A program made the translations under genes and the position numbers. The notes under the pieces were generated by a model, which saw nothing but the letters and a program-made list of their open reading frames with translations, did not search any database and was not told where the DNA came from. From Escherichia coli (lineage in GTDB: Bacteria; Pseudomonadota; Gammaproteobacteria; Enterobacterales; Enterobacteriaceae): a DNA stretch of 64,000 bases. The DNA lies in NCBI RefSeq assembly GCF_044324875.1, contig NZ_CP172185.1; one strand, 5' to 3'. Shown here in pieces: positions 12,082-57,443 of the stretch (positions are counted from its first letter, which is position 1; each line of letters starts with the position of its first letter).

Positions 12082-12157
12082 GCCCGGATAGCTCAGTCGG
12101 TAGAGCAGGGGATTGAAAATCCCCGTGTCCTTGGTTCGATTCCGAGTCCGGGCACCA
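12082..12157 (+). tRNA. pheU: tRNA-Phe (anticodon GAA)
   Basis: GCCCGGATAGCTCAGTCGGTAGAGCAGGGGATTGAAAATCCCCGTGTCCTTGGTTCGATTCCGAGTCCGGGCACCA; cloverleaf with GAA anticodon loop; pheU assigned from yjdC neighbourhood (sequence identical to pheV). Confidence 0.95.
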
Positions 12158-12354: not shown

Positions 12355-13617
12355 ATGGCACTGACTGACGCAAAAATCCGGGCTGCAAAGCACACTGACA
12401 AGGCTTATAAACTCACTGACGGGGCTGGCATGTTCCTGCTGGTACATCCTAATGGTTCCCGTTACTGGCGTCTCCGTTATCGCATTCTGGGTAAGGAGAA
12501 AACTCTGGCACTTGGTGTATACCCGGAGGTTTCTCTCTCCGAAGCTCGTACAAAACGGGATGAGGCCCGAAAACTGATTTCGGAGGGGATTGACCCTTGC
12601 GAACAGAAAAGAGCTAAAAAAGTAGTCCCTGATTTACAACTCTCTTTTGAACATATTGCACGACGCTGGCATGCCAGTAATAAACAATGGGCACAATCAC
12701 ACAGCGATAAGGTACTCAAAAGCCTCGAAACACACGTTTTCCCCTTTATCGGCAACCGGAACATCACAACACTCAATACCCCGGACCTGCTTATCCCTGT
12801 TCGTGCTGCAGAAGCTAAACAAATTTATGAAATCGCCAGTCGTCTGCAGCAAAGAATATCTGCTGTAATGCGTTATGCCGTACAGTCTGGCATCATCAGA
12901 TATAATCCTGCTCTGGATATGGCTGGCGCATTGACCTCTGTAAAACGACAGCATCGCCCCGCTCTTGATCTTTCACGTCTGCCTGAACTTCTGTCGCGTA
13001 TTAACAGTTATAAAGGTCAGCCTGTCACCCGGCTTGCTGTTATGCTGAATTTACTGGTTTTTATTCGCTCCAGTGAACTCAGATATGCCCGCTGGGCTGA
13101 AATTGATATTGACAATTCAATGTGGACTATTCCAGCCGAACGCAAACCTCTGCCAGGGGTAAAATTCTCACACCGGGGCTCCAAGATGCGAACACCACAT
13201 CTTGTGCCACTCAGCAAACAGGCTGTAGCCATACTGACAGAACTTCAGACATGGGCTGGTGAAAATGGTCTGATCTTTACGGGAGCACATGACCCGCGTA
13301 AACCAATCAGTGAAAATACCGTAAATAAGGCCCTCAGAGTGATGGGGTATGACACAACCAAGGAAGTCTGTGGCCATGGATTCCGGGCGATGGCGTGCAG
13401 TGCATTGATTGAATCAGGTTTGTGGTCCCGCGATGCTGTGGAACGTCAGATGAGCCATCAGGAGCGTAATGGTGTACGTGCTGCGTATATCCATAAAGCA
13501 GAACATCTGGAAGAACGTCGACTGATGCTACAGTGGTGGGCAGATTTTCTGGATGCGAACAGAGATAAGGGTATCAGCCCGTTTGAATATGCAAAGATTA
13601 ACAATCCATTAAAATAG
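12355..13617 (+). CDS. int: P4-type tyrosine integrase (island integrase adjacent to tRNA-Phe)
   Basis: 420 aa; MALTDAKIRAAKHTDKAYKLTDGAGMFLLVHPNGSRYWRLRYRILGKEKTLALGVYPEVSLSEARTKRDEARKL typical of P4-like integrase N-terminus; C-terminal catalytic region with HGFRA; located ~200 bp after tRNA. Confidence 0.9.
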   Translation: MALTDAKIRAAKHTDKAYKLTDGAGMFLLVHPNGSRYWRLRYRILGKEKTLALGVYPEVSLSEARTKRDEARKLISEGIDPCEQKRAKKVVPDLQLSFEHIARRWHASNKQWAQSHSDKVLKSLETHVFPFIGNRNITTLNTPDLLIPVRAAEAKQIYEIASRLQQRISAVMRYAVQSGIIRYNPALDMAGALTSVKRQHRPALDLSRLPELLSRINSYKGQPVTRLAVMLNLLVFIRSSELRYARWAEIDIDNSMWTIPAERKPLPGVKFSHRGSKMRTPHLVPLSKQAVAILTELQTWAGENGLIFTGAHDPRKPISENTVNKALRVMGYDTTKEVCGHGFRAMACSALIESGLWSRDAVERQMSHQERNGVRAAYIHKAEHLEERRLMLQWWADFLDANRDKGISPFEYAKINNPLK

Positions 13618-14068: not shown

Positions 14069-17000
14069 ATGGATGAAAATGCTTTAGGGTTTGCCTCATA
14101 CTGGCGCAACTCGCTTGCGGACGCTGAGTCAGGAAAGGGCAGTTTTGAACGGAAAGACGCCAAAAATTTCACTCACTGGCATGGGATAGCGGCGGGACGT
14201 CTTGACGAAGCGATTGTCAGTAAATTTTTTAAGGGAGAAAAAGACGATGTCGAAACGGTCGATGTCATCTTGCGCCCAAAAGTTTATTTCCGGTTACTGC
14301 AGCATGGTAAGGACCGTTCTGCAGGTGCGCCTGATATTGTTACCCCGATAGTGACGCCAGCCTTGCTAAGCCGTGAGGGTTTTTTATATCCGACGCCAGC
14401 GACCTCCATTCCCAGAGACCTGCTTGAACCTTTGCCAAAAGGAGCATTTTCGATTGGTGAGATTGGGCAGTATGACAAATACAAGACGACCCATACCACG
14501 TTCTCTATCAACTTTGATGACAGCGTTGATAAGACTGCCGAAACGGATGAAGAACGGGAAGAACGATATGCAGCCTTGCAGCAGGAGTGGCGTCAATATC
14601 TGGATGATTCAGAGAGGCTGCTGAAGAACGTTGCCGGCGACTGGATTAAAAATCCTGAGCAATATGAACTCGCTGAGCACGGTTATATTGTTAAAACGGC
14701 GCAATCTGGCGGTGCCAGTTTCCATATCCTTTCTCTTTATGATCACCTGCTTGTTTGCAATAAGGATGTGCCGCTCTTCAATCGATTCGCCTCGCGAGAG
14801 GTTCATGCTGCAGAGTCTTTGCTGGCCCCTGGAGCAAAATTCAGCGACAGGCTTGGACACTCCGGAGATAAGTTTCCGCTGGCAAAGGCTCAGCGCGATG
14901 CCTTAAGCCATTTTCTGGATGCTAAACATGGCGATATCCTTGCTGTTAATGGCCCTCCTGGAACCGGAAAAACCACGCTGGTGCTTTCTATCATCGCCAC
15001 GCAGTGGGCCAGAGCGGCTCTCGAAAAATCTGAGCCTCCGGTTATTATCGCGACTTCAACGAATAACCAGGCTGTAACGAACATTATTGAGGCATTCGGG
15101 AAAGACTTTTCGCAAGGTTCAGGTGCGATGGCCGGGCGATGGTTGCCAGAGCTGAAAAGCTTCGGCGCTTATTTTCCCTCAGGCAGCCGTAAAGCTGAAG
15201 CAGCCAAAAAATATCAAACTGAAGATTTCTTCAACCAGGTTGAGTCAAAAGAGTATGTAGAAGATGCACTGCTGTTTTATCTGGAAAAGGCTAAGGCAGC
15301 CTTTCCTGAAAAAGAGTGTTCATCCCCTGAAAAGGTCATTGAACTCCTGCATGGTCAGTTGGCAGCAAAATCCGAGCAACTGATAAGACTGAACGCAACA
15401 TGGCAAAAGTTAAGCCAGATTCGGGCTGCGCGTGAGCTTATTGCTAATGATATTGAGCAATATCTCAATAATTTAAATAAATTACTTTCCGGACAAGAAC
15501 AAAAAATCACTCTACTGAAGAGTGCTAAAACGGAATGGAAAAAATATCGCGCCGGTGAATCACTGATCTATTCATTATTTTCCTGGCTTCCGGCGGTTCG
15601 CAGTAAGCGACAGTACCAAATACAGCTGTTTCTCGAAGATAAATTAGGTGCGCTGATTGCAGGAAATCAATGGTCTGATCCTGAAACTATCGAACGTAAT
15701 ATTGATGGGCTGCTCAATTCCGCTGAGCGCGAGCAAACAACATACCGGCAGCAGATTGACTCCGCCCATGAAATCATTCTTAAAGAACAGCAGGCGGTTC
15801 AGGAGTGGCAGAGACTGGCTCTTGATTTAGGGTATGAGGGCGACGAGGAACTGAGCTTCTCACAGGCCGATGAACTGGCTGATACGCAGATTCGCTTCCC
15901 TGCATTTTTACTGACGACTCACTACTGGGAAGGTCGTTGGCTGATGGATATGGCCAGCATTGATGATCTGCAGGAAGAGAAGAAGAAAAAAGGCGCTAAA
16001 GGGGTAACCGCCCGTTGGCAACGTCGAATGAAACTCACTCCATGTGTGGTGATGACATGCTATATGCTGCCCGGCAATATGCAGATAAGTGAGCACAAAG
16101 GACAGCGTAAATTCGAGAAAAGTTATTTGTATGATTTTGCCGATTTACTCATTGTCGATGAAGCCGGGCAGGTGCTTCCTGAAGTGGCTGCTGCCTCGTT
16201 TGCATTAGCTAAGAAGGCATTAGTGATTGGCGATACGGAGCAGATCCCGCCAATATGGAGTATTGCTCCTGCGATTGATATCGGTAACATGCTGGCGGAA
16301 AAAATTCTGTCTGGCAGTACGCAAGAAGAGATTACCGAGAAATATACGGCAATCGCAGACCTTGGTAAAAGTGCCGCATCTGGCAGCGTTATGAAAATAG
16401 CGCAGTTTGCTTCGCGCTATCAATATGATCCCGAACTGGCTCGTGGTATGTACCTATATGAACACCGCCGGTGCTACGACAATATTATTGGATACTGTAA
16501 TACGCTCTGCTATCACGGTAAGTTGTTGCCTAAAAGAGGGCGTGAAGAGAGCAATTTAATGCCCGCAATGGGGTATCTCCATATTGATGGTAAAGGAGAG
16601 CTGGCAAGTAGTGGAAGTCGATATAATTTGCTTGAGGCTGAAACGATAGCGGTCTGGTTGGCAGAGAACCAGCAAAATATTGAAGCGCATTACGGTAAAT
16701 CGCTTCATGAAGTTGTCGGTATTGTGACGCCTTTTAGCGCTCAGGTATCCACTATCAAACAGGTGCTGGGCAAACAAGGTATCAGTACAGGCACGAATGA
16801 AAAGTCGCTCACAGTGGGCACCGTGCACTCTCTTCAGGGAGCGGAAAGAGCGATTGTGATATTCTCGCCAGTCTATTCAAAACATGAAGACGGCGGGTTT
16901 ATTGATAGCGATAACAGCATGCTGAATGTTGCAGTCTCCCGTGCGAAGGACAGTTTTCTGGTCTTCGGCGATATGGACCTGTTTGAGGTCCAGCCAGCCT

Positions 17001-17584
17001 CATCGCCACGGGGATTACTGGCAAAATACCTCTTTGAGTCAGAGAAGAATGCGCTCTCTTTTGATTATAAAGAGCGTAAGGATTTAAAAACCGCCGGGAC
17101 CAAAATCTACACACTTCATGGTGTGGAGCAACATGATAATTTCCTGAATCAGACATTTGAAAATACCAGTAAACACATCACGATAGTTTCTCCATGGCTG
17201 ACCTGGCAAAGGCTGGAGCAAACCGGTTTTCTTGATTCCATGATTGCGGCGTGTTCACGTGGAATTAACGTCACGATAGTCACTGACAGAAGCTACAACA
17301 CTGAACATAATGATTTTGAGAAGCGAAAAGAGAAGCAGCAGAACTTTAAAGCGGCGCTGGAGAAACTGAATGCGCTGGGTATTGCTACAAAGCTGGTAAA
17401 CCGTGTTCATAGCAAAATTGTTATTGGTGATGATGGTTTGCTGTGCGTGGGATCGTTCAACTGGTTTAGTGCGACACGGGAAGCGCGATATGAACGATAC
17501 GATACATCAATGGTTTATTGCGGTGATAACCTGAAGGGTGAGATTGAGGCTATTTATAATAGTCTTGAGAGGCGGCAGGTTTAG
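14069..17584 (+). CDS. Large fusion protein: unknown N-terminal domain + Upf1-like SF1 helicase core + C-terminal PLD-family (single HKD) nuclease domain; candidate defence protein
   Basis: 1171 aa; Walker A GPPGTGKT (~aa 295), Walker B/motif [11 protein letters not shown] (~aa 695), motif V-like [11 protein letters not shown], motif VI-like VAVSRAKD, then HSKIVIGDD (HxK(x)4D) near aa 1114; first cargo gene after island integrase. Confidence 0.9.
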
Positions 17585-27748: not shown

Positions 27749-29833
27749 TTACGCCTGACCGGTGTCTCTGGTGACATATTCCGGAGCTCCGGAGAGAGTA
27801 AAGGTAACGCGATCATCGGCAGAAGCATCTCCATACTGCAGATGCCCGTCGTTGGGGATCATGGCCAGTTTGCCGTAATAGCGATACACATTGTATTCAT
27901 CCTGTGTATAGCCAAAGAAGGACTGATTATTCAGTTGTGAACCCGACAGGCTGACAAACTCGCTGGCAAGAAGATGACTTCCCGTATTATCCAGTTTGTT
28001 CGCGTCAATCAGCAGATTATTACCGGCCGAAATTCTGGCATCCCCCCCTGTTGCACCAACATCGACGCGTGTTGTGCCAGTCAGAAATTTCCGGGTGGCT
28101 CCCTTTTCAGTCGGAACGGCCCATGCCTCAAAACCACCACCGGCAGTACCGCTCCAGGACTTCACATAATATCCCCATCCATTTTCACCTAAATCGCCCA
28201 CTCTGACTGAAACAGAATTTACACCATCAGGTACTGCGACATTCTCAACCGGAATGTATGATTTTGTCTCATTTATACCCTCCCGCTGATTCAGTAAATG
28301 TCCGGTTCTGATGGTGATATCACCGCGGGTGGTTTCGATATTCCCGGAGGTATTAATCACTTCAGCATTCGCGGCACCACTGACATCTTTCTGCATCACC
28401 AGGCTGTAACCCGCCAGCATATCGCCGTGATGGTTCCGGATGGTGCTGGCAAACAGCGAGAGGTTATTGCCCGCATACAACAGTGCGGTGTTAATGACTG
28501 CCCCGGCGACCGTTAACACCAGACTACCCGTCGTGCCGGTAAAACCGTCGAGAGTGATATCTCCCCTGCTGGTCAGGCTGACGTCCCCGCCTGCCTGCAG
28601 GCTGCCGCTGGCATTCATCGCAATCCCGCTGCCGCTCAGTGCCGTGGTGCCGTTGCCGGCGGTCAACTGGCCATTGTTGGTCAGCCTGCCTGCAGCATTC
28701 AGCGTGATACCGTTGCCCTGCAATGTGGCGCCATTGGTAATATCACCCTGGCTGCTGACGGAGAGTTGTTTATTCGCGGCGATAACGCCCTGTGCGGTCA
28801 AACCACGTGTGAGCTTCAGCGTCAGGTTACCGAGTGCAACCAGCTGGCCCGCGCCGCTGAGCGAGACCATTTCAGCAAGCATATCACCGCCGCTGAACAC
28901 CTTCCCGCCGGCGTTGTTCAGGCTGTTCCCTTTTATTGTCAGGCCCTGATTACCCAGCAGCGTGCCGCTGTTGGTGATGGTCTGCGTGTTGACGTTCAGT
29001 TGTGCAGCCTGGAACAGGCCACGGTTGGTCAGACTGTTACCTGTGAGCGTTGCCTGATTCGCCGCCATCACAGTGCCATTACCGGCAAGCTTCGCCACGT
29101 TCAGCAGCAGGTCAGTGGCCTGTAGCCAGCCACTGCCACTGTAGTCCGGCGTGGTGAACGTCAGCTCACCGCCGGAAAGAATCTTGCCACTGTTGTGGGC
29201 CTGCGTTGCCGCGCTGAGCGTGGTTTTACCGTTGCCCTGAATGGTGCCGTCATTAGTCAGCACAGGTGCAGAAAGCGCTGATACGTTCTGACTGAGAAGC
29301 ACACCGCTGGTCTGGTTGGTCAGGGCATTCAGCAATGTAAGAGTCAGCCCGCTGTCGCCCTGCACACGACCTGAGTTGGTCAGCGAACTGGCGGTGATTC
29401 GGTTATCCGCCCCCTGAAGCTGCCCACTATTGCTGATGTCTCTGGCGTTGACGTTTAATGTACCGCCTGTCAGCATTTTACCGTGCTGTTGCAGATTACC
29501 ACTGAGTGTCACATTCAGGCTGTTAACACCACTGATTTCGCCACCGTTGCTGAGCGAATCACCATTCACTTCCAGCGTCTTCGCGCTGATTAATCCCTTG
29601 TTACCCAGCACTTTCCCGGTAAGGCGGGCATCGCCCAGGGCGGTAATTTTGCTGCCGGTGGCAGCAATAACATCGCCACTCAGGGTCAGAGCCAACTCCA
29701 GCGCACTCTGAACAGCACCGCTGCTGGTCAGGCTGCTGGCATCCAGAGTAATGTTCTGCCCCTGAATCCGGCCGCTGTTGGTCACATCTCCTGCGCTCAG
29801 CGTCAGCGAGTTCTGGCTCGATCCGCGCACCAC
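27749..29833 (-). pseudogene. Fragment of a large filamentous-haemagglutinin/CdiA-like repeat protein (two-partner-secretion exoprotein), truncated at both ends
   Basis: 694 aa of degenerate ~20-aa repeats rich in TLSG/LTNSG/IQGNG/NAL motifs; no signal peptide or TPS domain; 3' end abuts IS66 copy 1; 5' end abuts the GC-rich block. Confidence 0.6.
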
Positions 29834-31620: not shown

Positions 31621-31692
31621 ATGGAGCGCACCAGTCGTAGCCCGGCTAAGCGTAGCGCCAGCCGGGAACGCTCCTTCGACAACGCTATCGCA

Positions 31693-33075
31693 TCAGAACC
31701 ACGCCTCAAACATCCCGCCGACGTTCAGCGAATCCAGCTGCTGGTCTTTGGTGCCGTTGACCTTAGCGGTATGCTCGTTGTCCACCTGACCGCCGGTCAC
31801 GTAGAAGCGCAGCATCGGACGGAACTCCGGCCCCATGCCGATGGCGATGTTCTGCGACAGCGTCAGCTTCCAGCCGTGGTTATCCCCGCCCTGGTCGTAG
31901 TCCACGCGCTGGTAGCCCGCTTCCAGCCAGGTGGAGTGCACGTCGTTCCAGAAGTACATCGGCCGCACGATGGCACCGTAGTTTTTGCGGTTGTCGGTAT
32001 TATCTTTGCCGTTGTCGTAGTCGTGGAAGGCCAGCAGATATTCCACCTGCGCCTGCTGGGTGAACTTATGGCTGCCCTCGAAGCTAGCGTAGACCGTGGT
32101 CAGGTCGTCGGTTTTGTTGTAGACGCTGTTATCCGAGTTATCGGAGTAGCGCAGGATCACCTTGTTCACCCCTCTGTCGTTGGTGTGGCTCAGCACCAGG
32201 CCGCCCTGCCAGGCTTCGAGACGCGCGTCGCTGTCCACCGCCTTCGAGTCAAAGCCGTAGTTGGCGTACACCTCGACGTCGATCGGCCCGGCCTTGATGT
32301 TGTGGGTTTTGGTGGTCAGCGCGTAGTGGCCGTTGTCCCCGGTGTCGGAGCTGCCGGTACAGGTGATACGCGACGGGTTGGTCTCGTCGGCCATCACTTC
32401 CGGGCTACAGGATTTCACCTGCGACACCGCCGCCACGTCGAACTGCACGCCGCCGATATCAAAGTTCTTCACCCCGGCGCCCTGGCCGTCGTGGTTCATC
32501 CAGAAGTAGTCGTTGATCCCCTGTTGCGGACGCTGGTGGAAGTCGCGGCCGGCCCAGATATAGGCGTTGGGATTGGATTCCAGCACGTTGGTGACGCCGA
32601 CGTAGGCCTTCTTCAGGTTAACCTCGTCGCTCCAGTGGTCGAACATGACGTTGAGATCCCAGATAGCCCCCTGCGCGCTTTTGAAGGCTTTGCTGATCTG
32701 GAATTCGCCGCCGTTGCTTTCGTTGCCCAGACGGCCGATCGCCGAGGCGCCGTTATAGGAGCCGTCGACGCCGACATATTTCTGGTCGCCGGTCTGGAAA
32801 TGGGCGCCATAGCGGGCATAGCCGCTGAACTTGAGGCCGAACGGAATGGCCATATCCGGCGAGGCGGCGGTGGTCTGTGGGTTGGTAATGACGTCGACCT
32901 TTTTGTCGGCCGCGGCGTCAATTTTCGCCTGGCGGTCGGCCAGCGCTTTATCAACGGCTTTGGCGACGATGGCGTCGATCTGTTCCTGAGTAAATTCTTG
33001 CGCCATTACAGAGGTAAGCGGAAAAAACGCGGCGATAACCGCCATGGTTAATGGAAGTTTTTTTATCATTGTCAT
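31693..33075 (-). CDS. LamB-family sugar porin with N-terminal coiled-coil extension (ScrY-like)
   Basis: 460 aa; signal peptide then AQEFTQEQIDAIVAKAVDKALADRQAKIDAAADKK extension; C-terminal ...GGMFEAWF. Confidence 0.65.
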   Translation of the reverse strand: MTMIKKLPLTMAVIAAFFPLTSVMAQEFTQEQIDAIVAKAVDKALADRQAKIDAAADKKVDVITNPQTTAASPDMAIPFGLKFSGYARYGAHFQTGDQKYVGVDGSYNGASAIGRLGNESNGGEFQISKAFKSAQGAIWDLNVMFDHWSDEVNLKKAYVGVTNVLESNPNAYIWAGRDFHQRPQQGINDYFWMNHDGQGAGVKNFDIGGVQFDVAAVSQVKSCSPEVMADETNPSRITCTGSSDTGDNGHYALTTKTHNIKAGPIDVEVYANYGFDSKAVDSDARLEAWQGGLVLSHTNDRGVNKVILRYSDNSDNSVYNKTDDLTTVYASFEGSHKFTQQAQVEYLLAFHDYDNGKDNTDNRKNYGAIVRPMYFWNDVHSTWLEAGYQRVDYDQGGDNHGWKLTLSQNIAIGMGPEFRPMLRFYVTGGQVDNEHTAKVNGTKDQQLDSLNVGGMFEAWF

Positions 33076-49896: not shown

Positions 49897-51213
49897 ATGA
49901 AACCGTTACATTATACAGCTTCAGCACTGGTGCTCGGACTGACGTTAATGGGGAATGCACAGGCAGTGACGACCATTCCGTTCTGGCACTCTATGGAAGG
50001 GGAACTGGGTAAAGAGGTGAATTCTCTGGTCCAACGTTTTAACGCCGAAAACCCGGATTACAAAATTATACCGACTTATAAAGGCAACTACGAAGAGAGT
50101 TTAAGTGCGGGGATCGCAGCATTTCGTACCGGTAACGCTCCGGCTATTTTGCAGGTTTATGAAGTTGGCACCGCCACCATGATGGCGTCGAAAGCCATTA
50201 AACCGGTGTATGACGTGTTTAAAGAGGCGGGGATTAACTTTGATGAGTCGCAGTTTGTGCCGACGGTTTCAGGCTACTACTCCGACAGCAAAACGGGACA
50301 CTTACTCTCCCAGCCGTTCAACAGCTCGACTCCTGTTCTCTATTACAACAAAGATGCTTTCAAGAAAGCAGGATTAGACCCGGAACAGCCGCCGAAAACC
50401 TGGCAGGATCTGGCGGACTATGCCGCGAAACTGAAAGCCTCCGGTATGAAGTGCGGCTACGCCAGCGGCTGGCAGGGCTGGATCCAACTGGAAAACTTTA
50501 GCGCCTGGAACGGTCTGCCGTTTGCCAGCAAAAACAACGGCTTTGACGGCACAGATGCGGTGCTGGAGTTCAACAAGCCGGAGCAGGTGAAACACATCGC
50601 CATGCTCGAAGAGATGAACAAGAAAGGCGATTTCAGCTACGTCGGGCGTAAGGATGAATCCACCGAGAAGTTCTATAACGGTGATTGCGCAATGACGACT
50701 GCCTCTTCTGGTTCTCTTGCCAGCATTCGCGAGTACGCCAAATTCAACTACGGCGTAGGCATGATGCCTTACGACGCTGACGCGAAAGATGCACCACAAA
50801 ACGCCATTATCGGCGGAGCCAGCCTGTGGGTGATGCAGGGCAAAGATAAAGAAACGTATACCGGCGTGGCGAAGTTCCTCGACTTCCTCGCGAAGCCAGA
50901 AAATGCTGCCGAGTGGCATCAGAAAACCGGTTATCTGCCAATCACCAAAGCGGCGTATGACCTGACCCGTGAGCAGGGCTTTTATGAGAAAAACCCAGGG
51001 GCGGATATCGCGACACGTCAGATGCTGAACAAACCGTCGTTACCGTTCACCAAAGGACTACGTCTGGGCAACATGCCGCAGATCAGAGCGATTGTGGATG
51101 AAGAGCTTGAGAGCGTGTGGACCGGTAAGAAGACGCCACAGCAGGCGCTGGATACCGCCGTTGAGCGTGGGAATCAGTTACTACGCCGCTTTGAGAAATC
51201 GACGAAGTCTTAA
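49897..51213 (+). CDS. sn-glycerol-3-phosphate-type ABC transporter periplasmic binding protein (UgpB-like), orphan
   Basis: 438 aa; signal peptide [23 protein letters not shown]; close UgpB-like sequence; no adjacent permease or ATPase genes. Confidence 0.75.
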
Positions 51214-52707: not shown

Positions 52708-54051
52708 ATGCACAACTCCAAAATCCGGCTGGCTATACTGGTTGGCTGCATGGCTCTGAGCGCCAACCTGTGGGCCAAAGCGCAGCCGGTGCAGGCAACG
52801 CTGGCCGGGCATGCAATTCTGCCGGCAAAATCCGCTGTTTCAACACCGAAGGATGCGCCGGGCGATTTGCAACAGAGCGGCAAATACACCAGCGGCAAAC
52901 GCGTCACCGAGCTGGGCAGCGTGGCGGGCAAATCCGCAGAACGCCTGACAGGACTCAGCCTGCCGATCAATGGTCAGCCGTTGCAGGGCCACTCAGGTAT
53001 CAAACACATGCCCGACGGTACCTATTGGGTGCTGACTGACAATGGCTTCGGCAGCAAAGCCAACTCCCCGGACGCCATGCTGTACCTCAACCAATACAAG
53101 ATAGATTTCAAAGACGGCTCGGTAGTACCGATGAAGACGCTGTTCCTGCATGATCCGGATAAAAAGGTGCCGTTCCACATCATCAACGAGAGCACCGAAC
53201 TACGCTATCTGACCGGCAGCGATTTTGATCCGGAAAGCTTCCAGTTTTCCGACGATGCCTTATGGATCGGTGATGAGTTCGGTCCTTACCTGATCAAGAC
53301 CGACCTGAACGGCAAGGTGCTGGCGGTGTTCGACACAGAAGTGGACGGTAAGGTGGTTAAATCGCCGGACAACCCGACGCTGACTCTACCTAGCGCTCCG
53401 GACGGTAAGCTGAACTTCCAGGTGGCGCGTTCCAAAGGCTTTGAAGGCATGGCCATCTCGCCGGACGGCAGTAAGCTGTATCCGCTGCTGGAAGGGGCAT
53501 TGTGGGACGGTGAGCAGTTCGAGAACGTTGACGGAAAACGCTACCTGCGTGTGCTGGAGTTCGATGCCAAACAGCAGGCCTGGACTGGTCGCAGCTGGCA
53601 GTACGTGCTGGAAGACAACCAGAACGCCATCGGCGACTTCAATATGATAGATGATACCCACGGACTGGTGATCGAGCGTGATAACGGCGAAGGCACGGCG
53701 GATAAAGCCTGCGTCGCCGGCGCGCCGACCAACAACTGCTTCAGTCAAGTAGCCAGGTTCAAACGGGTGTATAAAATTGCTTTCTCGGACACTAACGTCG
53801 GAAAACCTGTCGAAAAACTGGGCTATATTGACCTGATGAAGATTCAGGATCCGAACAAGCTGGCACGCAAGCCGCTGAACGACGGTGTGCTGACCTTCCC
53901 GTTCTTCACCATCGAGAACGTGGATGTGGTTGACACTAACCACATCATCGTAGGCAACGATAATAACTTCCCGTTTTCCTCCAGCCGCTGGCCTAATATG
54001 GCGGATGACAACGAGTTTATTCTACTGGATGTGAAGGATTTTCTGAAGTAG
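52708..54051 (+). CDS. Secreted phytase-like / esterase-like-activity-of-phytase family protein
   Basis: 447 aa; signal peptide; motifs WVLTDNGFG and SKGFEGMAISPDGSKLY typical of this beta-propeller family; family call unverified. Confidence 0.45.
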   Translation: MHNSKIRLAILVGCMALSANLWAKAQPVQATLAGHAILPAKSAVSTPKDAPGDLQQSGKYTSGKRVTELGSVAGKSAERLTGLSLPINGQPLQGHSGIKHMPDGTYWVLTDNGFGSKANSPDAMLYLNQYKIDFKDGSVVPMKTLFLHDPDKKVPFHIINESTELRYLTGSDFDPESFQFSDDALWIGDEFGPYLIKTDLNGKVLAVFDTEVDGKVVKSPDNPTLTLPSAPDGKLNFQVARSKGFEGMAISPDGSKLYPLLEGALWDGEQFENVDGKRYLRVLEFDAKQQAWTGRSWQYVLEDNQNAIGDFNMIDDTHGLVIERDNGEGTADKACVAGAPTNNCFSQVARFKRVYKIAFSDTNVGKPVEKLGYIDLMKIQDPNKLARKPLNDGVLTFPFFTIENVDVVDTNHIIVGNDNNFPFSSSRWPNMADDNEFILLDVKDFLK

Positions 54052-54207
54052 GGGGAAGAGCATCTTACGATACTCCTCGCTAATTTAAAAACGAACGGTG
54101 CTGAGCACCGTTTTTAATCACCTCGCCAGAACCTACCAGAATATGATGTTGGTTTATTATCACTGATTCATGGGGAGCACCCAGCGCTTCGGCGGTTTTT
54201 TATGTCT

Positions 54208-55032
54208 TTAAAGCAGTAGCGGTAGGGTCGCGCTGGCTGTTTTCTGGCTCACCTCGCTGTACTGGTCATCCAGCGCAATCAGCGATGTGGTGAGTAGCTC
54301 TACCAACAGCATCACTCCCACTTTGGCAGTCAGCGCGCCGGCACTCAAGGGTCCTTCCGGTTTGGCCGCGACCAGTTGAATATCACTCAGCGAAGCTAAC
54401 GGACTGCGCGGTGTATTACTCAGCGCCAGTACACGCACACCTTGCTTACGCGCTAGTTTTACGACATGCAGCAGATCGCGCGTGGATCCAGAACTGGAAA
54501 TCGCCACCACGAACGTGTTTTTACTAAGTGTTGTGGCGTTCATGGCAGCACGATGCATATCGCTGAACAATTGTGCGGGTTTCCCCAGACGCAGGAGTTT
54601 ATAATGTAAATACTCCCCCAGAATGGCACTGGCTGCTACGCCATAAATCTGCACTGACTGAGCCTGATGCAGTGCAAGCGCGGCTGCTTCCAGCAAGGCT
54701 CTGTCGAGTAATTTTGCTGTGTCCTGTATTGCTTGCACGGATTCATTGACCACATTGTCAATCTCATCACCGCCGTGCTCTACAAACTGTACTTGTCGGA
54801 GATCGAGTGCCAGCGCCATTTTGAATTCGTTATAGCCCTTACACCCAAGCGTTCGGCACAGACGTGTGACGCTAGCCTCGCTGGTGCCGCTTTCACGCGC
54901 AAGTTCGGTAATCGTCAGGTAGACAACTTTTGCCGGATCGCTAAGTACAAACTCTCCCAGCTTCTGTTGTGTTCGGCTATATCCATCAACGCTCTGGCGC
55001 AATCTCAGCAGCAGGTTTTCATTTTCTGACAT
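54208..55032 (-). CDS. RpiR/MurR-family transcriptional regulator (HTH + SIS domain)
   Basis: 274 aa; N-terminal HTH (LTITELARESGTSEASVTRLCRTLGCKGYNEFK), C-terminal SIS-like region. Confidence 0.75.
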   Translation of the reverse strand: MSENENLLLRLRQSVDGYSRTQQKLGEFVLSDPAKVVYLTITELARESGTSEASVTRLCRTLGCKGYNEFKMALALDLRQVQFVEHGGDEIDNVVNESVQAIQDTAKLLDRALLEAAALALHQAQSVQIYGVAASAILGEYLHYKLLRLGKPAQLFSDMHRAAMNATTLSKNTFVVAISSSGSTRDLLHVVKLARKQGVRVLALSNTPRSPLASLSDIQLVAAKPEGPLSAGALTAKVGVMLLVELLTTSLIALDDQYSEVSQKTASATLPLLL

Positions 55033-55197
55033 GTAAAATCCTTAATGCGTTTATCTGTTGATAGTGTGACGGAAAGGAGGGGATTGATGCCAGACATTTT
55101 AAAAAAGTATGATCGACTTCTTAGATTTTGATGGTGATTTTTATTTATAAGAATAATTATGGTAAAAATTTTCATCAAAAATCGAGGAGATGATAAA

Positions 55198-56754
55198 ATG
55201 ATGCAAATGTTTAGCGGCGCTTCATCGGGGGGATGGTTTGAAAAAGCGCAGCGGTTCGGAAAATCCTTCATGCTGCCGATTGCGGTATTGCCCGCAGCAG
55301 GGCTGTTATTAGGGATTGGTGGCGCGTTGTCAAATCCAAACACGTTGACGGCTTATCCGTTTTTAGATGCCGACTGGTTGCAGGCAATATTCACAATCAT
55401 GACCAGCGCAGGTTCTATTGTGTTTGCCAACCTGTCGGTACTCTTTGCAGTCGGCGTCGCCGTGGGGCTGGCGAAATCGGATAAAGGCACTGCCGGGCTT
55501 GCGTCATTGCTGGCGTTTCTGGTGATGAATGCCACCATCAACGCCTTATTAACGCTCAACGGAACGCTGGCGCACAAGAACCCCGCTTCAGTTGGCCAGG
55601 GGATGACGCTTGGTATTCAGACACTGGAAACTGGTGTGTTTGGTGGGGTGGTGATTGGTCTCGTCACCTGCACTTTACATAGCCGTTTCAATAAAGTCTC
55701 ACTACCTCAGTTTCTCGGTTTTTTTAGTGGTTCTCGTTTTGTACCCATTATCAGCTCCCTTGCCGCGATAGTAGTGGGTGCGGTTATGACGGTGGTGTGG
55801 CCGCATTTCCAGAAACTCATTTTTGGACTGGGCGACCTGGTGGATGCGACGGGCTATCTGGGGACGCTGTTGTACGGCTTCATCCTGCGTATGCTCGGTC
55901 CACTGGGTTTACACCATATCTTTTATTTGCCGTTCTGGACGACGGCGCTGGGCGGCAGTGAAATCGTCAACGGCCAGTTGGTTGAAGGTACGCAGCGGAT
56001 TTTCTTTGCCCAACTTGCCGATCCGAATACGCAGCAGTTCTACGCGGGTACCGCTCGCTTTATGTCCGGGCGCTTTATCACCATGATGTTTGGCCTGCTT
56101 GGCGCATGTCTGGCAATGTACCATACTGCAAAGCCGGAGAATAGAAAGGTTGTCGCCGGACTACTTTTGTCGGCAGCCCTGACCTCTTTCCTGACGGGAA
56201 TCACTGAGCCTGTTGAGTTCTCCTTCCTGTTTGTCGCGCCCGTATTATACGTAATTCACGCCTTCTTCGATGGTCTGGCGTTTATGGTCGCCCATATTTT
56301 ACATATCACTATTGGGCAAACCTTTTCGGGCGGGCTTATCGATTTCCTTCTCTTCGGCGTGTTGCAGGGGGAAGCTAAAACAAACTGGATGTATGTCCCC
56401 ATAGTGGGAATACCGTGGTTCTTCCTTTACTACTTTACTTTCCGCTATTTGATTAACCGCTTTGGCTGGCTGACGCCGGGGCGTGAGAACGTAACCCAGG
56501 TTGAATCCGGCCAGCCTCAGAGTGAACGCGCAGCGGCAGTCATTGCCGGGCTGGGAGGCAAAGAGAATCTGGAAGAGGTGGACTGTTGCGCCACGCGCCT
56601 GCGCGTGACGGTTAAAGAGAGCAGTAAGGTAGATGAAGCTGCGCTGAAAGTGGCCGGAGCGCGTGGCGTGATTATTCGCGGCAACGGCGTTCAGGTGATT
56701 TATGGCCCTCATGTCACCATCATTAAAAACGAAGTCGAAGAGATTTTATCGTAA
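55198..56754 (+). CDS. PTS glucose-family EIICB component
   Basis: ORF 55159..56754; polytopic EIIC followed by EIIB with conserved Cys ([15 protein letters not shown]). Confidence 0.8.
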
Positions 56755-57443
56755 TGAAAACTGTACTGGATTCCCTGAAAGGTAAATTAATCGTCTCCTG
56801 TCAGGCTCTGGAAAATGAGCCTCTACATAGTCCGTTTATTATGTCACGTATGGCGCTGGCGGCAGCACAAGGTGGTGCTGCAGGTATCCGTGCCAACAGC
56901 GTGGCGGATATTAGTGCTATCAAAGAGATTGTCTCCCTTCCGATGATAGGGATTATCAAACGCGATTACCCTGGCAGTGAGGTGTTTATCACGGCCACTC
57001 TCCGGGAAGTGGATGAGCTGATGACCGTTGAGCCGGAAATTATTGCCCTGGATGCTACTGCGCGCCCGCGCCCTGGTGGTCAGACGCTGGAAGAACTGGT
57101 CACGCAGATCCGCGCTCGCTACCCGTCCATACTTCTGATGGCAGATATAGCAACAGTAGAAGAGGCAGTGACAGCTGAACGTCTGGGTTTTGACTGTGTG
57201 GGCACTACGCTCTACGGCTATACCGCAGAAACTGCCAGGCATGTGCTGGCGGAAAATGACTGTGGATTCTTACGTGAGGTCCTGAAAGCGGTCAGCGTTC
57301 CGGTCGTGGCGGAAGGGAATGTCGACACCCCGGAGTGCGCCGCACGTTGCCTGACATTAGGCGCTCATACCGTGGTGGTTGGGGGGGCAATCACTCGTCC
57401 GCAGCAGATAACGACACGCTTTATTGCAGCGATCGCCTCGTAA
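56754..57443 (+). CDS. nanE: N-acylmannosamine-6-phosphate 2-epimerase (NanE-like)
   Basis: 229 aa; [48 protein letters not shown] typical NanE N-terminus; start overlaps PTS stop. Confidence 0.8.

Follow-up and report, generated by a model that had tools for sequence, protein, structure and literature searches.

A three-gene cassette at positions 54208–57443 of a 64-kb stretch of an Escherichia coli chromosome (contig NZ_CP172185.1, hereafter the window) represents, with an estimated probability of about 0.7, a self-contained and inducible route for the use of free N-acetylmannosamine (ManNAc). According to the open reading frame (ORF) listing and domain profiles, the cassette consists of rpiR, encoding a 274-aa NanR-like regulator of the RpiR family (54208–55032, minus strand), a gene encoding a 518-aa EIICB permease of the phosphotransferase system (PTS; 55198–56754, plus strand), and nanE, encoding a 229-aa ManNAc-6-phosphate (ManNAc-6-P) 2-epimerase (56754–57443, plus strand). 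In the proposed mechanism, the permease would take up ManNAc and phosphorylate it to ManNAc-6-P, the phosphate being delivered by EI, HPr, and EIIA-Glc (Crr) of the host. The translationally coupled NanE would epimerise ManNAc-6-P to N-acetylglucosamine-6-phosphate (GlcNAc-6-P), which NagA and NagB of the core genome would turn into fructose-6-phosphate. The NanR-like regulator would bind two near-palindromic 18-bp boxes, which overlap the -35 region and the site where transcription from the permease promoter presumably starts, and ManNAc-6-P would most likely free it from them. Most likely, the cassette lets some pathogenic E. coli import ManNAc into their ordinary amino-sugar metabolism. In species with a nan cluster lacking nanE, it probably also supplies the epimerase step for sialic acid catabolism.

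The original prediction had described this region as a compact amino-sugar uptake module composed of a divergently transcribed RpiR/MurR-type regulator, a glucose-family EIICB, and an overlapping NanE-like epimerase. This reading is supported and becomes more specific by the NanR-like regulator, the assignment of NanE, the sugar pocket, and the gene linkage described below. The ORFs of rpiR and the permease gene are indeed located on opposite strands. Whereas the mechanically derived permease ORF starts at 55159, conservation in other genera and the RefSeq annotation both point to the ATG at 55198 as the start codon, which is preceded at a distance of 8 nt by GAGGAG (55184–55189) and agrees with the intergenic range of 55033–55197 given earlier. 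The overlap of nanE and the permease gene was found as predicted: the junction reads TCG-TAA-TGA, with base 56754 being common to the permease stop codon and the nanE start codon (1-nt overlap). Because these codons overlap, both genes are almost certainly co-transcribed; the arrangement points to translational coupling and makes it very unlikely that they are transcribed separately. Comparison to orthologues of Citrobacter, Lelliottia, Enterobacter, and plasmids yielded dN/dS values of 0.03–0.15 for all three genes, which are real, maintained, and under strong purifying selection.

NanE matches NF002231 with 316.1 bits (cutoff 189) and PF04131 with 233.8 bits (cutoff 27), covering positions 1–191 of the 192 positions of the latter profile, and is 61% identical to the kinetically characterised NanE of Staphylococcus aureus (SaNanE). 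In the alignment of both proteins, Q17, R46, K69, D131, Y156, E187, and R215 correspond to Q11, R40, K63, D124, Y149, E180, and R208 of SaNanE, which are catalytic or substrate-binding residues according to mutagenesis and a ligand-bound structure (PMC8482478). Both signature motifs of the family, xPxIGIxK[K/R] and VG[S/G]AxTR (PMC8482478), are intact and read LPMIGIIKR and VGGAITR, respectively. By these features the protein is a genuine member of the NanE family, and a ManNAc-6-P to GlcNAc-6-P activity is predicted. Because it shares only 41% identity with the NanE encoded in the nan operon of E. coli K-12, the cassette protein would represent a second, foreign copy in E. coli.

The permease contains the PTS_EIIC (PF02378, 297.9 bits) and PTS_EIIB (PF00367, 56.3 bits) domains and lacks an EIIA domain, in agreement with its earlier assignment to the glucose family. 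It has the same fold and domains as PtsG, MalX, and NagE of E. coli, to which it is 45%, 43%, and 38% identical, respectively. The phosphorylatable cysteine, the GITE motif, and the His-His pair are common to these proteins: C464 corresponds to C421 of PtsG, T336/E337 of GITE to T297/E298, and H239/H240 to H211/H212. Nevertheless, the permease scores below all of the curated cutoffs of these transporters. This applies to the glucose equivalogs TIGR02002 (587.2 versus 591.8 bits) and NF008301 (421 versus 647) as well as to the MalX and N-acetylglucosamine (GlcNAc) equivalogs NF007509 (481.8 versus 665), TIGR02004 (482.2 versus 632.2), TIGR01998 (444.6 versus 553.2), and NF007608 (287.4 versus 1010).

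The difference to PtsG, MalX, and NagE lies in the remodelled contacts to C2 and C1 of the sugar. Glucose-binding residues known from the cryo-EM structure of PtsG (PMC11393339) were located in the permease by alignment. PtsG residues contacting OH-3, OH-4, and OH-6, namely R203, T297, E298, H211, H212, F337, and S338, are kept as R231, T336, E337, H239, H240, F376, and S377. In contrast, the contacts to OH-2 and OH-1 are replaced, E202 by L230, K257 by M296, and N215 by Y243; furthermore, W247 takes the place of Q219, which is a gating residue of hairpin HP1b in PtsG and not a glucose contact. E202 and K257 are the ligands of the glucose OH-2, which is needed for binding by PtsG (PMC11393339). 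L230, M296, Y243, and W247 are invariant in orthologues from the Enterobacterales, Aeromonas, the Negativicutes, and the Bacillales. The GlcNAc permease NagE has Met and Trp in common with the cassette permease, but Asn at the other two replaced positions. The pocket would fit a 2-acetamido sugar other than GlcNAc, and we infer that ManNAc is the transported sugar and that the permease is specific for it. A ManNAc-like amino sugar as the likely substrate, as proposed originally, is in line with both this residue analysis and comparative genomics.

A pattern scan with one genome per species resulted in 80 loci with close permease orthologues (68–96% identity). At 77 of these loci, nanE adjoins the EIICB gene. 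The closest permease homologues also include proteins of Cronobacter turicensis and C. dublinensis. Three arrangements occur: rpiR divergent from EIICB-nanE in the Enterobacterales and Aeromonas, EIICB-nanE-rpiR in the Bacillales, and nanE-EIICB in the Negativicutes. Within 6 kb of the module, nagB was found at 11 loci and nagA at six, all of them in Firmicutes. Genes of sialic acid catabolism are nearly absent from this neighbourhood, with nanA and nanK near the module at one locus each and nanT at none. In the window itself, tblastn with the K-12 proteins NanA, NanK, and NanT gave no match, and a canonical nanA-nanT-nanE-nanK cluster was not found. Because these genes are absent from the window and almost never located beside the module, sialic acid itself is an unlikely substrate of the permease. 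At the Yersinia pekkanenii locus (L051, 5928–8504), an rpiR-EIICB pair occurs without nanE and is directly followed by gpmA; nanE may be located elsewhere in this genome.

In Pectinatus frisingensis, the gene order is nanE-EIICB-rpiR-nagB-EIICB2-nagA-EIIA(Glc), which, judged by gene content, amounts to a complete route from ManNAc to fructose-6-phosphate. The second EIICB of this cluster (locus L054, 9363–10745), situated between nagB and nagA, is NagE-like and has Asn and Met at the C2-pocket positions, so that the Pectinatus pair offers a natural side-by-side comparison of specificity. The Seinonella locus comprises genes for EIICB, NanE, RpiR, and EIIA-Glc. Linkage to nanE, nagA/nagB, and EIIA-Glc genes supports the view that the permease product is handed over to NanE as its substrate ManNAc-6-P, is drained via NagA and NagB, and that an EIIA-Glc-type protein acts as phosphoryl donor.

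In the window, no local donor is encoded. Tblastn with E. coli Crr, confirmed as a PF00358 protein by profile match, gave no EIIA-Glc homologue anywhere in the 64 kb, in agreement with the earlier claim that a local EIIA is absent. Because of this absence, the permease would have to depend on the host Crr as phosphoryl donor, relying on a separate EIIA-Glc as PtsG and MalX do. The claimed reliance on an EIIA(Glc)-type partner is also backed by the orthologous Firmicute clusters that encode such a protein beside the module. The wording "chromosomal EIIA(Glc)" is correct insofar as crr of the host is chromosomal, but the plasmid location of the cassette at which it hints does not hold, since the cassette resides in a chromosomal tRNA-Phe island.

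The regulator contains the HTH_6 (PF01418) and SIS (PF01380) domains. Its best solved relative is NanR of Vibrio vulnificus (VvNanR, PDB 4IVN) with 44% identity over 271 aa, i.e., the full length (E-value 1.5e-68, 234 bits), followed at a distance by the next PDB match (5e-32, 115 bits). Similarity to MurR is far weaker (about 67 bits). Of the earlier designation as RpiR/MurR type, the RpiR part is retained and the MurR part is replaced by NanR. None of the named NCBIfam equivalogs (AlsR, MurR, and HexR) came near its cutoff. An SSSGST phosphate-binding loop aligns with the same loop of VvNanR and corresponds to S179, S181, and T184 of the pneumococcal SpNanR as well as to the conserved S190/S192 of MurR, S146 of MurR being located outside the loop (PMC12713135, PMC9177960). 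VvNanR was crystallised with ManNAc-6-P and, as summarised in PMC12713135, senses this compound. The nearest characterised relative being a NanR and the gene adjoining a nan gene, from whose operon EIICB-nanE it is divergent, the regulator is predicted to be a ManNAc-6-P sensor, ManNAc-6-P being the presumed effector.

The divergent control region between rpiR and the permease gene (55033–55197, 165 bp) was aligned across 22 genera or species as a phylogenetic footprint, which revealed two conserved operator-like boxes. The proximal box TGGTAAAAATTTTCATCA (55160–55177), an 18-bp near-palindrome 21 nt 5' of the permease start codon and directly 3' of a -10-like AATAAT (55152–55157), shares 16 of its 18 positions with TGATGAAAATTTTCATCA, a perfect palindrome, and is the sole match in the window to TGATGAAAATTTTCATCA with up to three mismatches. 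In 82 loci, i.e., the 80 species loci and two E. coli records (L001 and L002), TGATGAAAATTTTCATCA with the same tolerance occurred 62 times within 200 nt upstream of the permease start, at 47 loci, and only once elsewhere in 1.04 Mb. As TGATGAAAATTTTCATCA was derived from these sequences, the evidence resides in the position specificity and the conservation across genera, not in the count for the window. The proximal box resembles the operators of SpNanR, which are 18-bp near-palindromes (PMC12713135), in its length and its A/T-centred type.

The distal box TGATGGTGATTTTTATTT (55129–55146) is located 31 nt upstream of the proximal box and overlaps a -35-like TTGATG (55128–55133). This layout, with the distal box on the -35-like and the proximal box after the -10-like element, suggests repression rather than activation. 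A weak CRP-like site, TATGATCGACTTCTTA (55108–55123), agrees with the consensus at seven of ten positions; in the same alignment columns, the CRP-type site is perfect in Aeromonas (TGTGAGAGCTGTCACA) and strong in Pantoea, the comparison to the consensus having been made by eye. The proximal box, the ribosome-binding site, and the start codon of the permease gene are intact in E. coli. In the rpiR-proximal half of the spacer, a conserved block TAGTGTGACGGAAAG (55062–55076) and GCCAG (55089–55093) are kept across many Enterobacterales. Neither an obvious sigma-70 promoter nor a known operator fits these elements, and the TAGTGTGACGGAAAG block is possibly the rpiR promoter or leader. The promoter hexamers are to be taken as suggestions, since the counts of the promoter and terminator scans did not exceed the shuffled expectation. 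Neither the spacer nor the sequence downstream of nanE matched an Rfam family at E-values up to 1, and the idea of a riboswitch or leader RNA at these sites was dismissed.

Among known systems, the lmo2795-nanE operon of Listeria monocytogenes, which encodes an RpiR regulator, a PTS, and NanE and is required for growth on ManNAc (PMC10667646), comes close to the cassette. Regulator, PTS permease, and epimerase are encoded together in both, and the Listeria operon does not depend on sialic acid, a sugar that Listeria is unable to use. However, EIIA and EIIBC are encoded separately in the Listeria cluster, which additionally contains ROK, HAD, and oxidoreductase genes, and its regulator is co-directional and activator-like, whereas the cassette comprises three genes only, with a glucose-family EIICB lacking EIIA and a divergent regulator. 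VvNanR represses from two adjacent sites in a divergent nan promoter region, with co-regulation by CRP (as summarised in PMC12713135). Its regulon is the full sialic acid cluster (transporter, nanA, nanEK, and nagA), whereas that of the cassette regulator, of which effector and operator are predicted, apparently contains only the PTS permease gene and nanE.

In the pneumococcal nanE-nanP pair (SP1685-SP1684), nanE adjoins a glucose-family EIIBC gene without EIIA, a gene order that is also found in the Negativicute orthologues. SpNanR is likewise of the RpiR type, binds ManNAc-6-P and 18-bp near-palindromes, and acts as an activator. Unlike the cassette, this pair belongs to a large regulon of sialidase, ABC-transporter, and lyase genes. 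In case of E. coli K-12, ManNAc enters via ManXYZ and is epimerised by NanE (as stated in PMC10667646). ManXYZ and NanE of nanATEK follow the same chemistry as proposed for the cassette, from the PTS to ManNAc-6-P, GlcNAc-6-P, and further to NagA and NagB (as stated in PMC10667646 and PMC3716653). The K-12 route employs a mannose-family PTS and the 41% identical NanE and is controlled by NanR, the GntR-type regulator of sialic acid genes. The cassette, in contrast, brings its own regulator together with a dedicated permease and a NanE resembling those of Firmicutes. In Cronobacter, a 229-aa nanE product is encoded away from nanAKT in all seven species, including those that do not use sialic acid, and groups with proteins of Enterobacter, Citrobacter freundii, and Pantoea (PMC3716653); a neighbouring PTS gene is not mentioned there.

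Several observations weigh against a ManNAc route. The main caution arises from the pneumococcus, in which ManNAc uptake is assigned to ABC transporters (PMC3302838, PMC5110562), and in which the mutant of SP1684 (NanP), the only tested EIIBC encoded beside nanE, has a modest or weak defect on glucosamine and not on ManNAc (PMC3302838). SpNanR and Lmo2795, the two characterised RpiR regulators of nanE operons, are activators (PMC12713135, PMC10667646), and the E. coli copy shows a degenerate distal box, the Citrobacter version of which (TGATGATAATTTTCATTT) is nearer to the consensus, as well as a degenerate CRP-like site. No nanE is located nearby in Y. pekkanenii L051 and Selenomonas L064 and L069. 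Furthermore, E. coli already possesses ManXYZ and the NanE of the nan operon, so that the benefit of the cassette is unproven. In the open-access literature, we found neither a transport or growth study of the permease or a close orthologue, nor a named ManNAc-specific PTS, nor work on the cassette in avian pathogenic E. coli (APEC) or Cronobacter.

The pneumococcal glucosamine phenotype would also fit a different explanation, according to which the cassette is an accessory of sialic acid catabolism: NanE and the ManNAc-6-P-sensing regulator would act on ManNAc-6-P formed intracellularly by NanA and NanK, and the permease would import another amino sugar, e.g., glucosamine or GlcNAc, into the NagA/NagB path. 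This is consistent with the two pocket residues common to the permease and NagE, and with the presence of nanATK without nanE in Cronobacter sakazakii, Citrobacter freundii, and Edwardsiella, whose sole nanE is located elsewhere and belongs to a clade matching that of the cassette (PMC3716653). Nevertheless, we regard it as rather unlikely. The module also occurs in Cronobacter species that lack nanAKT and do not grow on sialic acid (PMC3716653), the almost complete lack of nanA and nanK beside it applies here as well, and a GlcNAc or glucosamine permease would not need a translationally coupled NanE. Moreover, Leu and Met make the C2 pocket hydrophobic, which suits an acetamido group better than a free amine, and the second, NagE-like EIICB of the Pectinatus cluster argues for different sugars in the two permeases.

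Public databases (RefSeq and UniRef) label the permease maltose/glucose-specific or glucose-specific, using generic names only. Taken literally, it would be a glucose or maltose transporter with a meaningless nanE neighbourhood, for which the 45% identity to PtsG and the TIGR02002 score, missing the glucose cutoff by only 4.6 bits, could be adduced. We consider this very improbable, since every curated equivalog cutoff is missed, the OH-2 binders E202 and K257 on whose ligand PtsG binding depends are Leu and Met (PMC11393339), and chance does not account for a linkage to nanE that persists, with three gene orders, in the Proteobacteria as well as in two classes of Firmicutes. Least of all do we expect the E. 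coli cassette to be decaying, unexpressed, or non-functional cargo of a mosaic island. Insertion sequence (IS) remnants and pseudogenes flank it, an IS903B insertion interrupts the matched region in some genomes, and both the distal box and the CRP-like site have stronger counterparts in other genera. However, the three ORFs are intact with their catalytic residues present, as are the proximal box, the ribosome-binding site, and the start codon, and dN/dS is about 0.1 even in comparison to the closest Citrobacter and plasmid copies. In addition, at least 80% of the region is present in 468 genomes, with 211 records reaching 99% identity or more. The ManNAc route is the reading we prefer.

The window is part of an E. 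coli chromosome, in which groEL and dsbD are followed by tRNA-Phe (12082–12157) and a P4-type integrase gene (12355–13617). A genomic island starts at tRNA-Phe and runs past the end of the window, with the cassette situated approximately 42 kb inside. In E. coli strain 104, the same block is located in a tRNA-Sec (selC) island beside yicJI, and in APEC IMT5155, the cassette block is found near ireA. Overall, 567 of 5426 complete E. coli genomes (approximately 10%) match the region, and the 468 genomes mentioned above are among them. A further copy with 93.5% identity resides on plasmids of the IncFIA/FIB/FII type that originate from hens, where its neighbours are a relaxase-like gene on one side and the replication region on the other.

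At the DNA level, the window resembles Citrobacter chromosomes only within 54185–57529, and the best DNA match of the cassette is a Citrobacter metagenome-assembled genome (93% identity). Citrobacter, Enterobacter, Lelliottia, and their relatives carry these three genes between eno and queE, in a region bordered by pyrG and mazG at one end and by queD and cysJI at the opposite end. Both junctions of this locus are recognisable in the window. Directly downstream of the rpiR stop codon, the terminator scan found a G+C-rich hairpin with a T run (54174–54196), which aligns with the hairpin CCCGCTTCGGCGGGTTTTTTT of the Citrobacter eno-rpiR spacer; homology starts within it at 54185. At the right edge, where homology ends at 57529, a fossil of the queE start, ATGCAGTTCCCGATTAGC (57514–57531, plus strand), comprises the first six queE codons and aligns with the Citrobacter queE start ATGCAGTACCCGATTAAC. 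Because the eno-side hairpin and the queE start mark its ends, the E. coli copy is a 3.3-kb unit that was cut from a Citrobacter-like eno-queE locus and captured into the tRNA island. More of queE is retained in the copy on IncF plasmids, which the cassette reached separately from the island.

Between nanE and the queE fossil, 29 nt 3' of the nanE stop codon, a perfect 28-nt palindrome GGAATAAGCGATAATTATCGCTTATTCC occurs (57472–57499, plus strand), which has a predicted RNA fold of -25.5 kcal/mol (z -3.35) and is not followed by a U tract. In Citrobacter, it is kept directly upstream of queE. The palindrome is probably the hairpin at the 3' end of the operon, although it could belong either to nanE as a 3' hairpin or to queE as a control element.

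A relationship to the APEC tkt1 island was dismissed, as that island is situated between metE and ysgA and contains a different PTS and RpiR pair; the transketolase genes near the cassette are a split pair beside an ascorbate-family PTS. Regarding the selC island AGI-3 of strain BEN2908, the BEN2908 genome paper contains no mention of the module.

The remaining content of the island is heterogeneous. Upstream of the cassette, an orphan gene for a UgpB-like substrate-binding protein (49897–51213), which has no permease or ATPase genes beside it, is separated by IS110 remnants from a phytase-like esterase gene (52708–54051), whose 3' end occurs with 100% identity on plasmids of E. coli and E. 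fergusonii. Downstream, a gene for a c-type lysozyme inhibitor of the MliC family (57948–58286) is followed by a gene for a small protein with a sigma-70 region-4-like helix-turn-helix (58643–59098) and a gene for a 437-aa YadA-like trimeric autotransporter adhesin (59160–60473), the latter two possibly forming a regulator-adhesin pair. Directly inside the island, a 1171-aa protein is encoded (14069–17584), whose weak matches to the anti-phage helicases PLuB/ProA are far below the cutoffs and which may be a defence protein. Between 26000 and 40000, the G+C content of 0.55–0.63 is unusually high for E. coli, and long ORFs without NCBIfam match (e.g., 27749–29833 and 31621–33051) occur together with overlapping long antisense ORFs; this part is probably foreign DNA from a high-GC donor.

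The proposed route is not conceptually new, as PTS-plus-NanE routes and RpiR-type NanR regulators are already known, and in E. coli it would be a fairly ordinary metabolic add-on from a Citrobacter-like bacterium. If true, it would nevertheless correct a widespread misannotation, since hundreds of E. coli and many Enterobacterales genomes carry the label "maltose/glucose-specific PTS" for what is more likely a dedicated ManNAc permease, and would explain the "orphan" nanE of Cronobacter, Citrobacter, and Enterobacter. It would also assign a defined metabolic trait to the accessory islands and IncF plasmids found in extraintestinal E. coli from birds and humans. From the pocket comparison, a testable rule follows as to how the C2 substituent is recognised by permeases of the glucose family. 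Going further, we give about even odds to the view that the permease founds an uncharacterised, ManNAc-specific subfamily of the glucose PTS, defined by the invariant Leu/Met/Tyr/Trp and spread horizontally between Firmicutes and Enterobacterales, which in islands of extraintestinal pathogenic E. coli and APEC and on IncF virulence plasmids would confer a ManNAc-inducible growth advantage in host niches rich in sialic acid.

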